From: a virus
Taxonomy: Duplodnaviria > Heunggongvirae > Uroviricota > Caudoviricetes
DNA length: 44,464 nucleotides
Virus record (IMG/VR): IMGVR_UViG_2571042862_000006
Span: 1 to 44,464 of that record
Reading direction: 5' to 3' (one strand)
The notes beneath the pieces are model-generated. The model was given only the letters and a program-made list of their open reading frames with translations. It had not been told where the DNA came from and did no database searches. The position numbers and the translations under genes are program-made. Shown here in pieces: positions 17,390-30,812 of the stretch (positions are counted from its first letter, which is position 1; each line of letters begins with the position of its first letter).

Positions 17390-18889
17390 TTAAGTTCTCC
17401 GTGCGATGGGCCTGATTGGGGCTGGTATCTTTTTCTCTTTTGGTTTTTTGATGTCGCGCATCATTTTTGCGAAGCGGCGCATCATGTATGCATAGCGAAC
17501 GGCTGAGAGAACGTCATCGTTAAGCTTGACGATCTTCCCGTTTTCATCACGGTGATAGAGGCGGAACTCCTCAAAGAATGGCTCACAGGTGTTGAATACT
17601 TTGAAGCGACCATCAAGCATCATGTCGCGCAATTCAGTGATTCCAGGCTCAACAGCATTACCGCCATCAGGCCATGTCGCATGATCCTGCAACATCATAA
17701 ATCCAGCGTCTGCATACTGCCCTTTGAGCTGCTCACCGCCGCCCTTCTCGTGCTGGTTTCCGTCATGAGGCCATGCGGTTGGCACTTTATGCGCCCATGA
17801 TTTAACGGCTCCCCATGCCTGAACGGCTGTTTTTTCTTTCGCCTTCCACACGCGTGAAACGTAGATTGTGTCTGCGTCCTTATCCCACCAAAGCTGAACC
17901 TGCGCCTGCGGGTGATCCCATCCGAAATCCATCCCGCCAATTACGTAGAAGTGATCAGGACACTCGAACGGCTGACACTTAATCGTCTCTTCCGGTATCT
18001 GGAATATTCGCCCGCTACCCATCGTAGGAATACCGCGAGCACGCGCCTCTCTCTCATGCTCAGGATAGGATGCGATGATTTGCTCTTTCTGCTCGTCGGT
18101 GTAGTGCTCTGCGTCATAGATGGTCATGTTGACCACTTTCTGAGACTTGCTGGGATTCTTCAGGAACTTGGTAACAACGTCAGACATCCCCATCAGCGGG
18201 GTAAACGTCAGAATTGAGAATTGCCCGTATTTGTTGGTACGGGTAAGACCTTCGCCATAAATGCTGTATGGTGGTTCTTCGTCAAACCAAACGCCGTGGA
18301 TTGTGTCACCCTGCCAGCGAGCACGGCCTTGCGAGTATGGCTTGAAGTAGCAGATTGAAATGCCATCTTCAACGCCATCAGCCGTGTGATGCTTAACCAG
18401 AAGATGATCAACAAGGTTCGGAAAGAAAGGAGACTTCTTCCAGCTAATGATGTCCTCTTTCGGTATTGAACCGTAGCCCGGTTCATCATTCTCTTCAATA
18501 CGACCGCACAGGATGCGTTGAGTCGTTTTGGTTACCGTCTCGTTTGTCTCGCCGCCAATCCAGAAGACAACAGGCTCATAGAAACGCTTACCTTTCCACT
18601 CACCGCCATATTTACCATCAGCAGGATAGCCTTTTGTGCCCGGATAACGCCCTGTAAGGTGAAACGCGACTTCAGCAGCACCAGTAAATGACTTACCAAG
18701 CTGGTTACCAGCCATAAAACATCGCTCTGGATAGTCATGCCCGGCGTCGATGAACTCACGCTGTTTGCTGTATGGCGTAAATTCATATAGCAGGTGTGTG
18801 TTACGGTAGTTCTCTTCTTCTTCGAGTAGCTCGAGCAATTCGATTTGCTCTTCGTCGCTCAGGTTATCAAGAATCGCGTCCAGTTCCAC
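17390..18889 (-). CDS. Terminase large subunit, P22 gp2-like
   Basis: 499 aa; N-terminus [37 protein letters not shown] matches P22 TerL. Confidence 0.95.
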
Positions 18890-19361
18890 GGTTGAATAGC
18901 TCCTTGATACGAGAGCGTCGCTTATCGCGATCTCCCTTATCAGGTGTCACGTCTTCAACTTGCGACTGCTCTTTGAGGCCCAAATCACGGGCGATGATGT
19001 TAGCGTTGAGAAGGTCAGCGGCTGCGCCAGAGAATTTCTGGTCGTAGATGATGTCTTCCGCTCGTGATGTGACGTCAGAAAAACCTTCCATTGACCGGAA
19101 GGTCCCCCATGTTTGCCTGGTGATATCAAGGAAGGTACACAATCCTGAAATAGTCATGGCTCGCATCTTAGGGACATTAGCCTTAATTATTTCTCCCTGA
19201 TATGAAAATACCTTACCCTCCCATAGCGGGTTATCATCAGCCCACTCGAAGTATTCACAACAAGCAGCCCACAGCGCCTCAGGCGATTCGAATTTAGGGT
19301 TTCGCCCATGACTACTGCGGGCCTCCCAAAATCGGTTGCCCTTTGGTGCTGCCATATTCAT
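18867..19361 (-). CDS. Terminase small subunit, P22 gp3-like
   Basis: [38 protein letters not shown] and the ...[22 protein letters not shown]-terminus match P22 gp3; true start may be two codons in. Confidence 0.85.
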
Positions 19362-19390
19362 CTCACTTAGTTGTTATTTCAGGTTGAGCA

Positions 19391-19633
19391 TCATGCTCCG
19401 GTAGTGAACAGGTCTAACGCTTCCTTAGATTTACGCACCGCTTCGAATGTGCGGATCGTGATATCCGAATTAGCGCCGCCTGACTGGAAGTGAATTTTGA
19501 ATAGCTCAAGCTTCAGTTCGTCAGTGCCAATGAACTGAAATGCTTCCTCTGCGGCTGCGTTCTGGTTCATGACCAGTTTGTAAATCTCTAACTGGAATTT
19601 CTGTTCTTCAGTCATGGGAATAATCTCTGCCAT
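19391..19633 (-). CDS. Hypothetical protein, 80 aa, upstream of the terminase genes
   Basis: ORF with a plausible start; occupies the position of the small P22 ORF preceding gene 3. Confidence 0.45.
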   Translation of the reverse strand: MAEIIPMTEEQKFQLEIYKLVMNQNAAAEEAFQFIGTDELKLELFKIHFQSGGANSDITIRTFEAVRKSKEALDLFTTGA

Positions 19634-19736
19634 TGTTGGCTCCGTTTATCCGTTAAAAGGGATATTAGTTAAGTTATCCCGTGTAGGGTATAAGCAATTA
19701 TCAAAGCCACTCTGTAGGGAATGGCTTTTGTAATAA

Positions 19737-20117
19737 CTACTGTTCGCTTAGCTTCTGCTTCAGCAAGTAACCTTCGAGCATCCAGATTTTGTTTACAGCA
19801 TTTTGCCGGGCAATCTTCCGACCAATTTCTGCATCAAAGTTTTCCGGGCTTGCGCAGGCACTCTCTCCGGTGACGGTGAAGCCATTCTTCAGCACCAGTA
19901 CGCAGAAAGTGAGCAACTTCAATGGTGATAAATCACGATCGCCTTCTTCTGGTTTTTCCCTGCCACAATATTCGTTGCTGGAAATGGCACCATTACGTCC
20001 ATCATAAGCAGTAAAGTAATGCTCGCTTTTAATCACGTCTTCGATGTGCTGCGGAGTGATTCTCGGAGCGGTTTTGCCTTTCTCAACGATTTCTTTTTCG
20101 ATTTGCTGGTCGTTCAT
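19737..20117 (-). CDS. Hypothetical phage protein, 126 aa
   Basis: Uninterrupted ORF in phage-typical composition; no family recognised. Confidence 0.45.
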   Translation of the reverse strand: MNDQQIEKEIVEKGKTAPRITPQHIEDVIKSEHYFTAYDGRNGAISSNEYCGREKPEEGDRDLSPLKLLTFCVLVLKNGFTVTGESACASPENFDAEIGRKIARQNAVNKIWMLEGYLLKQKLSEQ

Positions 20118-20296
20118 AATTATGACCCTGTGGAGTGGTTGCTTGATTAGGATGTCTTTCCATCAGTCCGCCACCACAAAGAATCTTTTTTTGCCATAAG
20201 GCAGGAGGTTCATCTTTCAGTGGCTGCCAGTGTTATTTCCCCACTTACTGGCTTGGGTTGCTTCGTGGTACTGCTGTTAATTAGTGAGTCCGGGGA

Positions 20297-20782
20297 TTAT
20301 TTCAGTTCGTTACCAGGCATTTCTTTTAGCTCTTTCAAATGACAACGATTGAGGCTAAACCACTCCCCGTGCGACCTATAGTTGTAATATTTTTGGTGCA
20401 ATTTGGTTTCAAGCTCTCTATCGGCAGGAATCTTTGCAATTAGATTTAGCTTCCCACCACTCATGCGAGATATCTCTGAAATTCGTTTATTAACCCTGCG
20501 ACTAAACCCTATTTTTGTTAGCCCACTATCTTCAGCATGCAGAACGTACACATATGATTTTTGCGAAGCACTGGGTGCGACTTTGTTGTAATTAATCATG
20601 TCAAACATAAAGCCTTGCTTTAGCAAAGTTTCAAAAAAGATAGAATTAACACACCCATTCCTTCTCAACTCTGCACTTAGCTTGTCAATTTCCTCTATGA
20701 TGTCGCCAGACCCCTTTCCACTTATAAGAAAATCTTGGTACATGCGACCAATTCTTGAGGTAATTTCAACAAAGTTATTCAT
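20297..20782 (-). CDS. T5orf172-domain (GIY-YIG-like) protein
   Basis: Motif block YVYVLHAEDSGLTKIGFSRRVNKRISE...ELETKLHQKYYNYRSHGEWFSL fits the T5orf172/Mug113 family consensus; AT-rich; AAGG before the ATG. Confidence 0.6.
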   Translation of the reverse strand: MNNFVEITSRIGRMYQDFLISGKGSGDIIEEIDKLSAELRRNGCVNSIFFETLLKQGFMFDMINYNKVAPSASQKSYVYVLHAEDSGLTKIGFSRRVNKRISEISRMSGGKLNLIAKIPADRELETKLHQKYYNYRSHGEWFSLNRCHLKELKEMPGNELK

Positions 20783-20926
20783 AGCGTTTACCTTTTAGAA
20801 AGATGAGCCTGTTCGCACAGAAAAGCCGTCCCCGAGATGGTCGCCACCATATACGGCAATTCTCAGGCTCAGCTTTCTGAAAGACTCGGGATTGTTACGC
20901 GCTGCGATGCGCGGTTTACTGCAGAT

Positions 20927-20953
20927 GTAAAAAAGCCCCGCAAATGCGAGGCT
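20927..20953 (-). terminator. Rho-independent terminator downstream of Rz/Rz1
   Basis: Minus-strand hairpin GCCTCGC-ATTT-GCGGGGC followed by TTTTTTAC. Confidence 0.45.
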
Positions 20954-21126
20954 AAATCCTGGTATTTGTAATGACTGGCTCTTATCTCAACGCAGACCCT
21001 TACCGCGCGCCAGATGCTCAATATCAAGCATCAGCAATGAGATGTTTAATCTGGATTCACTCCAGAAGTGATCACCACCCTGTCTACAGAGCCAGATGTG
21101 AAGGATGATGAGTAAAATTATCGCTA

Positions 21127-21564
21127 TCATCGAAGGCATTGCGTCCTGATGTACTCCTGCAGGTAGTTAACCTGCGCGGTTATCCTGTCGATTCCACTTC
21201 GGAGACGGTAATAATTGAGTTCAGCATCTGCTGTAAGTCTTGGGCTTTCTCCATCGCCCATGCTGCTGGCTCCGGTCGTTGACTTTGCACAGGTGGCGGC
21301 GACTTGCAGGCGCTTACGACCAGCAGAAACATCAGCGCGGAGACTTTCGATAGTCGCGTTAGCATCAGCAAGTTCCTTTGTATATCTGGCATCGAGTTCT
21401 GCTACATCACGTTGACGCTTCTGCATATCAGCGATGATGGATGTGGCTTTATCGCGCTGTTCTTTATAGGTAATGGCGTTATCACGGTAATGATTAACAG
21501 CCCATGACAGGCAAACGATGATGCAGATAACCAGAGCGGAGATAATCGCGGTGACTCTGCTCAT
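21127..21564 (-). CDS. Rz: i-spanin (Rz)
   Basis: 145 aa immediately after the endolysin with an N-terminal transmembrane segment and coiled-coil body; Rz1 embedded in the +1 frame. Confidence 0.85.
21180..21365 (-). CDS. Rz1: o-spanin lipoprotein (Rz1), embedded within Rz
   Basis: Signal peptide with lipobox (LVVSAC) followed by a Pro-rich segment; start codon choice is uncertain. Confidence 0.65.
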
Positions 21565-22037
21565 GCCTCAATCTCTCTGACCGTTCCGCCTGCTTCTTTG
21601 AATTTTGCAATCAGGCTGTCAGCCTTATGCTCGAACTGACCATAACCAGCGCCCGGCAGTGAAGCCCAGATATTGCTGCAACGGTCGATTGCCTGACGGA
21701 TATCACCGCGATCAATCATCGGTAAAGCGCCACGCTCTTTAATCTGCTGTAGTGCAACAGCGTCCTGGCTTTTCGGAGAGAAGTCTTTCAGGCCAAGTTG
21801 CTTGCGGTAGGCATCCCACCAACGGGAAAGAAGCTGGTAACGTCCGGCTGCTGTTGATTTGAGTTTGGGGTTTAGCGTGACAAGTTTGCGAGGGTGATCG
21901 GAGTAATCAGTGAATAGCTCTCCGCCAACAATGACGTCATAACCATGATTTCTGGTTTTCTGACGTCCGTTATCAGTTCCCTCTGACCACGCCAGCATAT
22001 CGAGGAACGCCTTACGTTGATTATTGATTTCCACCAT
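21561..22037 (-). CDS. R: Endolysin, lambda R-type lytic transglycosylase
   Basis: 158 aa, essentially identical over its length to phage lambda R as remembered. Confidence 0.95.
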
Positions 22038-22344
22038 CTTCTACTCCGGCTTTTTTAGCAGCGAAGCGTTTGATAAGCGAACCAATCGAGTCAGTACCGA
22101 TGTAGCCGATGAACACGCTCGTTATATAAGCGAGATTGCTACTTAGTCCGGCGAAGTCGAGAAGGTCACGAATGAACCAGGCGATAATGGCGCACATCGT
22201 TGCGTCGATTACTGTTTTTGTAAACGCACCGCCATTATATCTGCCGCGAAGGTACGCCATTGCAAACGCAAGGATTGCCCCGATGCCTTGTTCCTTTGCC
22301 GCGAGAATGGCGGCTAACAGGTCATGTTTTTCTGGCATCTTCAT
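22021..22344 (-). CDS. S: Holin/antiholin, lambda S-type
   Basis: 107 aa, near-identical to lambda S including the dual-start [11 protein letters not shown]-terminus; about 250 bp upstream also matches lambda sequence. Confidence 0.95.
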
Positions 22345-22933: not shown

Positions 22934-22963
22934 ATTATGGCTAAATGGATAATTGCATGTCAA
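22934..22963 (-). promoter_or_regulatory. Candidate late promoter (pR'-like) overlapping the Q stop codon
   Basis: TTGACA, 18-bp spacer, CATAAT on the minus strand. Not verified; the transcript to the terminator would be only about 45 nt. Confidence 0.35.
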
Positions 22964-23459
22964 GGTTTTTAACAGCAACATGCTTAACTTTCTCAACACG
23001 TTTACGCATTTTGAAAGCATTTTGCATTGGTTGGTACAAAACAAATAATGACGCTTTCAGGATATCGTCAATTTCGTTTCTACAGGTTGCCAGTGAAGGT
23101 TTTCTCCATCCCTCGCCACCGCGTCCACACATCTTGCGTGGCTTTGCAGTCGCGTGATAGTAGGATGCAATTGCTCGCTTAGATGAACCATGAGCGTAGT
23201 AGCTGAGGAGGATGCCAAAGGCTTTCTTGTCAATGCACATGACAGAATCGACGACCTGAGAAATCAACATTCCATCATCATCATTGCACATTGGCCTTGT
23301 CATAACTCTTCCCGGCTCTACGCTCTCCATGAACTTCGCTATTACGCTGCTCATGCGCTTTTCCAGACGACCTGAATAAACCCATGCGCCCCACAGTTCA
23401 AGCCAGCCATTCAGCCACTCATGCTGTTCTTTGGTGAGGTTTAGTTCTCTTATGCCCAT
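22941..23459 (-). CDS. Q: Late-gene antiterminator Q (QuuD-like family, not lambda Q)
   Basis: Position directly upstream of the lysis cassette; blocks [11 protein letters not shown] and [16 protein letters not shown] resemble DLP12 QuuD-type Q proteins. Confidence 0.7.
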
Positions 23460-30164: not shown

Positions 30165-30812
30165 ATGAAAACGATGCATGAAATTATCGGGGAAAGGATA
30201 AAGTCCCTTAGAGAAGCTAAAGGACTTAGCCAGGCTCAATTGGCCAAGCTTTGCGGCTGGGCTGCGCCTTCACGCCTGGGGAACTACGAGTTAGGAACAA
30301 GAAAGGTTAGCGCGGATGACGCGCTGGTTCTTGGGGCGGCACTCGGCGTATCTCCGGCAAAAATAATGTTTGGCGAGGATTCAGACGCCGTATTTCGCCA
30401 ATATGAATACCCGTTATTTTCTTCAGTGCAGGCCGGGCCATTTTCGGAGGTGGGAAGCTACACAGCCAGCGATGCAAAGGCATGGGTCCCAACGACCACA
30501 AAAGCCAGCGAAAAAGCTTTCTGGCTTGAGGTGAAGGGGCATTCAATGACGGCGCCTCAGGGGGTTCGTCCAAGTTTTCCGGAAGGCATGCTGATACTCG
30601 TTGATCCGGCTGAGCCGGTAGAGTCTGGGGATTTCTGCGTGGCTTCTGCAAATGGTGATTCAGAGGCAACGTTCAAGAAGTATGAGAAGGATGCAGGGGT
30701 TAGTTACCTGGTACCTTTAAACCCGGCATATAGAACCCTGGATTGCGACCATAGCTGCCGCATCATAGGCAAGGTAGTTAAGGCGCAGTGGCCTGAAGAG
30801 ACGTTTGGCTGA
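30165..30812 (+). CDS. cI: CI-type repressor (HTH plus S24 LexA-like autopeptidase domain)
   Basis: C-terminal domain resembles the P22 C2 repressor ([13 protein letters not shown]...EGMLILVDP...ATFKKY); N-terminal HTH; true start may be the second ATG at 30174. Confidence 0.85.

Follow-up and report, generated by a model that had tools for sequence, protein, structure and literature searches.

The stretch of DNA analysed here (IMG/VR virus record IMGVR_UViG_2571042862_000006, positions 1 to 44,464; all 44,464 nucleotides are referred to below as the window) carries a P22-like (Lederbergvirus-type) prophage with its late genes on the minus strand. Between the lysis genes and the terminase genes of that prophage lies a gene for a protein of 161 amino acids (aa), the C-terminal half of which is a T5orf172 domain. 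Comparison with related phages identifies this gene as one allele of a cargo slot in lambdoid late operons, situated immediately after the terminator that closes the lysis cassette: by alignment, its coding sequence (CDS) has replaced an rha-type CDS from the start codon to seven codons before the stop, and it stands behind a structured leader that also precedes several unrelated genes. An initial annotation of positions 20118-21126 had described a 161-aa gene with T5orf172 in its C-terminal half, and a profile search with PF10544 (above cut-off) bears this out; the gene does lie in that interval, which also holds a 50-aa open reading frame (ORF), the structured leader and a conserved 146-bp downstream flank that had been left unresolved, and the rha/KilA-N slot, the relatedness of the N-terminal 70 residues to HkbL and the conservation of the leader had all been overlooked. 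The elements on which the argument depends are as follows.

20934-20953, minus strand: intrinsic-terminator-like hairpin AGCCUCGC AUUU GCGGGGCU, found by scan, with its U-run at 20924-20933.
20791-20884, minus strand: long irregular hairpin of the leader, from RNAalifold; the two strands of its basal helix are UCUUUC (20879-20884) and the Shine-Dalgarno sequence AAAAGG (20791-20796).
20297-20782, minus strand: CDS of the 161-aa protein, HkbL-like plus T5orf172 (GIY-YIG superfamily), from the ORF list and Pfam.
20579-20782, minus strand: N-terminal three-helix domain, residues 1-68, with helices at residues 3-21, 25-41 and 47-68 of the AlphaFold2 (AF2) model.
20321-20554, minus strand: T5orf172/MUG113 domain, residues 77-154, from Pfam and conserved residues.
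20277-20299, minus strand: 23-nt remnant of the 3' end of an rha-type CDS (..IPGLTN-stop), from side-by-side comparison with Sf101 rha and from the BLAST joints.
20151-20296, minus strand: conserved downstream flank of 146 bp, found also in Sf6 and in slots with Rha, KilA-N or Tad2-like cargo.

The replacement is read from its two joints. Sf101 (whose slot holds Rha) and HK620 (whose slot holds the KilA-N gene hkbK together with hkbL) match the window over 20778-21800 and again over 20151-20299 or 20151-20286, placing the BLAST joints at 20778 and at 20299 or 20286. At the 5' joint the leader, the Shine-Dalgarno sequence and ATGAA are common to Sf101 rha, to HK620 and to the window; the 3' joint is marked by the rha remnant, which overlaps the T5orf172 stop codon and the equivalent of which in Sf101 encodes ..V-I-P-G-L-T-N-stop. 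Joints and remnant together imply that the T5orf172 CDS took the place of an rha CDS and uses the rha translation signals. The other alleles of the slot, with cargo typed by Pfam, are Rha, KilA-N and P22_AR_N proteins, which are Bro-network proteins, and HkbL; the T5orf172 gene thus shares both its locus and its expression signals with Bro-network genes. The rha genes of phi80 and P22 (orf201) have the same slot, terminator, leader and start codon as the window gene, but Rha consists of a Phage_pRha DNA-binding domain with or without ORF11CD3 and has no sequence similarity to the T5orf172 protein; hkbK-hkbL of HK620 likewise shares slot and leader. In Sf6 the segment 20278-20964 is missing and 114 bp of unrelated sequence stand there instead, and in phage Huey a Tad2-like gene replaces 20288-20929. 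The Huey gene (L003:997-1497) encodes a 166-aa protein matching Tad2-like (Thoeris anti-defence 2) PF11195 at E 1.7e-24; it is without an rha-type leader, and its product is labelled 'anti-CRISPR' in the record.

Conservation is not confined to coding sequence. About 150 nt between the terminator and the ATG, some 95 nt of them in the hairpin, are conserved upstream of several unrelated genes. Besides the T5orf172 orthologues, the leader precedes rha in phi80, HK639, Sf101, Stx2a phages and phages of Klebsiella, Pantoea, Hafnia and Enterobacter, and KilA-N genes in HK620, Salmonella phage 29485 and a Providencia phage. The Stx2a-converting phage Stx2_PV11-77 has a second, diverged copy (82 bits, L014:123-296), which lies 1.3 kb upstream of the post-Rz copy, before a P22_AR_N-ORF11CD3 antirepressor-like gene upstream of Rz. 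In all, the leader was found in 153 phage records, 73 of which are Stx2a-converting phages, and at 1041 places in 916 of 5426 complete E. coli genomes (about one in six); in the E. coli genomes sampled it never lies under an annotated feature. Rfam gave no match at gathering thresholds anywhere in the window, and over 19300-21300 at E <= 1 only a chance-level hit to RcsR1 (19 bits against a gathering score of 60). The E. coli DH5alpha genome has a copy of the leader (NZ_CP026085.1, 1459041-1459190; H136) that is 98.7% identical to that of the window, the phi80 leader being about 83% identical.

The hairpin structure of this leader is well supported. A MAFFT alignment has 94.8% of its cells paired and double changes in 12 pairs, values that none of 500 shuffles reached. 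A covariance model recovered additional diverged copies; in the alignment fitted to the model, which leans towards the structure, pairing extends to 96.4% of cells, slid controls giving 37-51%, and both sides have changed in 29 of the 41 pairs. Plain MAFFT recovers the inner helices, with covariation, and misaligns the outer ones, for which structure-aware alignment and independent single-sequence folds were required. Seven diverged leaders folded singly all assume the same architecture (z between -1.5 and -4.6), and in six of them the Shine-Dalgarno sequence lies within the basal helix; by eye, at least four leader sequence types retain all the nested helices with different sequences. The hairpin would be expected to occlude translation initiation. 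RNase III or some other factor is a candidate for opening it, and a connection with the reported regulation of rha by integration host factor (IHF) is possible: rha is cited at second hand (in PMC4936722) as a gene of the late operon that impairs phage growth when the host is deficient in IHF.

The hairpin at 20934-20953, between Rz and the T5orf172 gene, marks the end of the lysis cassette, and a terminator at this place had been proposed from the outset. It is annotated at the same site in epsilon34 (as rho-independent), and also in HK106, phi80 and HK639; each of its seven stem pairs shows compensatory changes. A crude consensus scan found no sigma-70-like promoter on the gene's strand between terminator and ATG (20783-20933), and no terminator was found after the T5orf172 gene on its strand. 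The gene is co-oriented within the Q-dependent late operon. The term 'moron', as used in the initial annotation, is therefore hard to maintain in its strict sense of a gene with its own promoter that is expressed from the prophage: there is no promoter-like site, and start codon, Shine-Dalgarno sequence and leader are those of rha. In its looser sense of extra DNA with deviant base composition the term is apt: GC content falls to 0.37-0.39 over 20350-20800, from approximately 0.46-0.53 in the flanks, and the gene had rightly been seen as lying in AT-rich DNA. The comparison with the position of lambda bor holds as a rough positional analogy, but bor lies on the opposite strand in lambda.

Pfam finds two families in the 161-aa protein, MUG113 (PF13455; E 4.2e-13, 50.1 bits against a cut-off of 22.3, residues 90-154) and T5orf172 (PF10544; E 1.1e-09, 39.2 bits against a cut-off of 20, residues 77-154), both of them members of the GIY-YIG clan. 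The full-length AF2 model (predicted local distance difference test score, pLDDT, 86.7) has three long helices and then a beta-beta-alpha-beta-alpha unit. When the whole model was used for structure searches, generic helical bundles predominated or no match came back. Residues 70-161, modelled from 50 diverse homologues, reach a pLDDT of 94.8; the best PDB matches of this confident domain model are GIY-YIG nucleases only, and the domain has the GIY-YIG alpha/beta fold, a three-stranded sheet with flanking helices. Searching PDB by sequence with a 7-sequence family profile found no match, and a 50-sequence domain profile found a single marginal one, the GIY-YIG structure 1zg2 (E 0.17), in the alignment of which VYVL, KIG and R come to stand opposite the GIY, YIG and Arg motifs.

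Among the 50 homologues (28-65% identity) Y79, K90, G92, R100, E125, E140 and W141 are invariant and I91, H129, R136, G139 and F142 nearly so; the motif by which the domain had originally been recognised (YVYVL..KIGF..R..E..LH..HGEWF) is present and maps to these columns. The putative catalytic trio of first-motif tyrosine, arginine and metal-binding glutamate (Y79, R100 and E140) belongs to the invariant set. The second-motif tyrosine is a lysine (K90) in the 161-aa protein and in every one of the 50, so that the YIG motif of I-TevI and the T4 Seg enzymes reads KIG here; the window protein further differs from those enzymes in being without a NUMOD or helix-turn-helix (HTH) DNA-binding module, and in that its presumably occluding leader is inherited from the slot and is not nuclease-specific. 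Cleavage by the T5orf172 nuclease Odn requires the glutamate equivalent to E75 of I-TevI (PMC8263062). An intact catalytic centre is well supported by the conservation of these residues across homologues, and the 161-aa protein is a putative nuclease.

The N-terminal domain has a different kinship. Structure prediction, which the initial annotation had proposed for this region, gives three helices, and these are HkbL-like: HK620 HkbL aligns with residues 5-59 of the 161-aa protein by BLASTP (33% identity, E 9e-11), and the PHROG matches between HkbL (phrog_875) and the N-terminal domain are reciprocal. (The connection was first seen on reading the translations of slot neighbours and was then tested by BLASTP and PHROG.) Pfam recognises no domain in residues 1-76, and tblastn with the N-terminal 71 residues against phages retrieves identical copies only. 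The gene hkbL (L005:899-1156) encodes 85 aa and directly follows the KilA-N-ORF11CD3 gene hkbK with a 4-nt overlap; its homologues occur in 57 phage records, mostly beside KilA-N or antirepressor-like genes. The HkbL of HK620 is thus free-standing, has a basic tail and comes after a KilA-N gene, whereas in the window the module is fused to a nuclease domain and there is no KilA-N gene. To judge from these alignments, the 161-aa protein is an HkbL-like module in which the basic C-terminal tail of HkbL has been swapped for a nuclease domain. Pfam detects no Bro-network DNA-binding domain in it (Rha, KilA-N, P22_AR_N, ORF11CD3 or P63C), and its apparent link to the Bro network is through the HkbL-like domain and through the co-occurrence of T5orf172 with Bro-N and KilA-N domains reported elsewhere (PMC8096241). 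Oligomerisation and targeting are reasonable guesses at what the HkbL-like domain may do, by analogy: the GIY-YIG domain has a single active site, and characterised GIY-YIG enzymes, such as CMoRE, dimerise or tetramerise (PMC12923530).

The 161-aa protein itself is not new: an identical one has been deposited and named, and phage T5orf172 nucleases are a known kind. It is 100% identical to gp68 of Salmonella phage epsilon34 (RefSeq product name 'GIY-YIG nuclease family protein'), to gp64 of phage g341c and to a protein of phage NM-3, with 99.4% identity at the nucleotide level. The paper on the epsilon34 genome passes over the gene for gp68 without discussion. In epsilon34, as in the window, the gene comes after Rz, the small gene for gp67 and the annotated terminator; the difference is on the far side, where a Gp49-family cassette (see below) follows the gene in the window and is absent from epsilon34. 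In a collection of 5.8 billion proteins the close family has 14 matches, which include a 249-member E. coli cluster of the same name and several orthologues at about 60% identity. An exhaustive profile search for the T5orf172 domain returned 17,130 representatives at E <= 0.001, with full-length alignment limited to about a dozen proteins of approximately 160 aa. A few aberrant proteins also turned up: P0014 and the 161-aa protein align at the C-terminal part only, and P0014 carries the Rz-lysis Pfam PF03245, and P0005 covers 67% of the query at 99% identity and yet has the DUF2560 Pfam PF10834. These chimeras, with P0013, are likely to be assembly or frameshift artefacts, or else real rearrangements at a recombination-prone locus.

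The T5orf172 gene is present in 5 of the 375 phage records that match 19300-21700 and in 49 of 5426 complete E. coli genomes. Across 29 IMG/VR loci its CDS is 98.8-99.6% identical in nucleotide sequence to that of the window, with Rz at 71-98%, DUF2560 at 86-98% and the downstream flank (20151-20296) at 94.5-97.9%; at two of the loci (L036 and L046) the same CDS stands behind a phi80-type leader of 82% identity. Since the CDS is nearly identical in backbones with diverged Rz, it behaves as a self-contained unit with a recent history of transfer between backbones, those of Salmonella and E. coli phages included, and the original view of a horizontally exchanged single-gene module is upheld. As would be expected of a homing gene, it is sporadic among close relatives and occupies an intergenic site between conserved genes. 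Neither of the observations that had been named as fatal to the first reading, namely failure to match a T5orf172/GIY-YIG profile and conservation of the gene in all related phages within the head-assembly operon, was made. A co-conversion signature specific to T5orf172-bearing phages was considered and ruled out, the upstream flank being equally conserved in Sf101, which bears rha.

The more distant orthologues tell of a much longer association. At 60% (P0008-P0010), 59% (Erwinia aeris), 49% (L058) and 31% identity (HK106 gp64), all are situated after the spanin gene and terminator, behind the leader and before the terminase genes, and this position is constant although the Q, holin, lysin and terminase types differ among the phages. 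(A scan of genome contigs that took the close alignment as its query yielded only two relevant loci.) With position and leader shared down to 31% identity, the orthologue family is tied to the slot over long evolutionary distances.

The remaining elements around the gene are given in the order in which the late operon is read, followed by a comment on some of them.

22941-23459, minus strand: Q (ORF list and Pfam, as for the genes below unless stated otherwise).
22021-22344, minus strand: holin.
21561-22037, minus strand: endolysin.
21127-21564, minus strand: Rz (with Rz1).
20987-21139, minus strand: ORF of 50 aa, homologous to Sf6 gene 65 and epsilon34 gp67, which overlaps the end of Rz.
20898-20913, minus strand: small conserved hairpin CGCGC-AUCGCA-GCGCG, from alignment and RNAalifold, with little covariation.
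19738-20150, minus strand: indel cassette of 413 bp that holds the Gp49-family gene, from presence/absence comparison.
19737-20117, minus strand: CDS of the Gp49 / Sf6 gp66 family (Pfam PF13876, E 3.4e-35).
19391-19633, minus strand: DUF2560.
18867-19361, minus strand: small terminase (GP3_package).
17390-18889, minus strand: large terminase.

The 50-aa ORF matches no Pfam family and has a hydrophobic N-terminus; homologues are annotated in epsilon34, Sf6 and Sf101, and it is conserved in Huey too. It is part of the conserved upstream flank and lies outside the cassette. The Gp49-family cassette is present in Sf6, Huey and two further loci (L022 and L028) and absent from epsilon34, Sf101, HK620 and most T5orf172 loci; it is an indel independent of the T5orf172 gene. 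That the Gp49-family gene might be Tad2-like, as is the Huey slot gene, was ruled out, BLASTP and Pfam showing no similarity. Elsewhere in the window, ARAGORN calls a tRNA-Ala (anticodon cgc) at 30363-30445 on the plus strand, inside a 215-aa ORF (30165-30812); Rfam gives no tRNA there at its gathering threshold, and the call is probably a false positive.

What the gene is and where it stands can be asserted with great confidence, taken by themselves. What it is for is a more tentative matter, and the combined explanation offered here, that of a late-expressed endonuclease which takes part in conflict between genetic elements and spreads in a homing-like manner, is one that we rate as falling a little short of probable. 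The gene would be transcribed only by Q-modified RNA polymerase reading through the terminator, in late lytic growth or after induction; the grounds for thinking so are that the scan turned up neither a promoter-like site nor a terminator downstream, and that constitutive initiation in this place would carry transcription into the terminase genes. Translation would be held down by the leader hairpin, in which the Shine-Dalgarno sequence is buried. The 161-aa protein would be an active DNA endonuclease, its HkbL-like domain supplying oligomerisation or targeting, and it would act late, on the DNA of competitors, whether these are co-infecting or resident lambdoid phages with another allele in the slot, or satellites. 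The cassette would spread by recombination in its conserved flanks, the leader upstream and the 146 bp downstream.

This reading fits precedents in phage ICP1, the T5orf172 genes of which are homing endonucleases located near terminase genes and at the boundaries of genetic exchange (PMC10448857), and one of which, Odn (Gp88), is an anti-satellite nuclease (PMC8263062). The window gene resembles them in having the same Pfam domain, in being phage-encoded and sporadic, and in its proximity to terminase or structural genes; the ICP1 nucleases are found at the boundaries of exchanged modules, and their cleavage depends on a conserved glutamate (PMC10448857, PMC8263062). There are also differences. 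The ICP1 genes comprise many paralogues at many sites per genome, whereas the window gene has one fixed site; 87% of the T5orf172 homing endonucleases surveyed have CapR-type Zn-finger domains for DNA recognition, and Odn has a RepA_N-like domain at its N-terminus for that purpose, whereas in the window protein an HkbL-like helical domain takes up the N-terminus and no DNA-binding domain is recognisable.

Several observations weigh against the combined explanation. Pfam finds neither a Zn-finger CapR nor a DUF723, DUF4397, RepA_N or HTH domain in the 161-aa protein, and the N-terminal domain has only generic helical-bundle structural matches. Confinement to one slot and one leader, down to 31% identity, is more in keeping with a function held for a long time than with a selfish element of promiscuous habit. 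Sf101 and the window have leaders that are 100% identical, so that identity in the flank is not specific to T5orf172. Many of the 49 E. coli carriers appear to be closely related human isolates, and independent acquisitions are correspondingly fewer. The promoter scan, being a crude consensus search, is weak negative evidence. Finally, the other occupants of the slot are DNA-binding or antirepressor-like proteins and not nucleases, which makes a non-catalytic role possible.

This last consideration leads to the proposal that the protein is a DNA-binding or regulatory member of the Bro network without catalytic function, which would bind DNA or a repressor, as with those relatives of homing endonucleases that have been domesticated. 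The same leader and slot do serve Rha, KilA-N and P22_AR_N proteins, the HkbL-like module is common to a non-nuclease protein, and the first classification of T5orf172 placed it beside Bro-N and KilA-N as its partners, with DNA binding as the predicted activity. CapR, a repressor, is related by domestication to the T5orf172 homing endonucleases, but its counterpart in those endonucleases is the DNA-binding part and not the T5orf172 domain (PMC8096241). Moreover, the fold matches active nucleases, and the invariance of Y79, R100 and E140 in 50 homologues is hard to explain without catalysis; a regulatory role of this kind is therefore rather unlikely. If the protein does cut, it might instead serve as a defence or exclusion gene expressed from the prophage, a true moron that cuts the incoming DNA of foreign phages in the way of single-gene GIY-YIG defences such as PD-T4-3/CMoRE. 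CMoRE joins an N-terminal nuclease to a C-terminal domain that senses 5-hydroxymethylcytosine (5hmC) and functions in host defence in a modification-dependent way (PMC12923530), but in the window protein the order of the domains is the opposite, and nothing in it resembles the C-terminal sensing domain of CMoRE. The local signals also speak against prophage expression: no promoter-like site lies between terminator and ATG; a constitutive promoter there would reach the terminase genes, since the gene is followed by no terminator; a conserved hairpin hides the Shine-Dalgarno sequence; and the expression signals are common with those of the late gene rha. No established PADLOC defence model matches; in PADLOC-DB 2.0 only the candidate PDC-S57 does so, and only for part of the nuclease domain (E 4.1e-4, 18 bits), too slight a match for assignment to a defence system. 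We regard defence as distinctly unlikely. A late nuclease of a housekeeping kind, which would degrade host DNA, or process or resolve phage DNA before packaging, and have no part in conflict, would suit the timing of the late operon, but the gene is absent from most close relatives, and these (Sf6, rha-bearing P22-like phages, HK620) package normally. Any housekeeping role must therefore be one that the phages can do without and for which proteins other than nucleases can be exchanged, and we think it slightly less likely still than defence.

A bolder version of the conflict reading starts from the leader. Hairpin and upstream terminator together might constitute a hitherto undescribed cis-regulatory 'cargo port' of lambdoid late operons that gates the translation of interchangeable and probably toxic proteins (Rha, KilA-N, P22_AR_N, HkbL-T5orf172), with RNase III processing or another trans-acting factor as candidates for the gating; the nuclease, in turn, would drive its own replacement of rha alleles, with the conserved flanks of the port as homology arms. 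Taken as a single claim this is doubtful; if true, it could also account for the old genetics of IHF and rha.

The T5orf172 gene, then, is an annotated member of a known family in a known variable region, real but ordinary. What is added here is the codon-precise replacement of rha, the fusion of HkbL to a nuclease and, above all, the unannotated leader that is common to unrelated cargo. The accessory locus that follows the lysis genes in lambdoid phages becomes a defined slot with fixed expression signals, in which unrelated coding sequences are swapped with codon precision, and the RNA structure of its leader, which is neither annotated nor in Rfam, extends to the Stx2a phages. This provides testable handles on how toxic late accessory proteins may be restrained, on what Rha and HkbL do, and on whether a minimal T5orf172 nuclease can make one allele displace another in temperate phages, as happens in ICP1.

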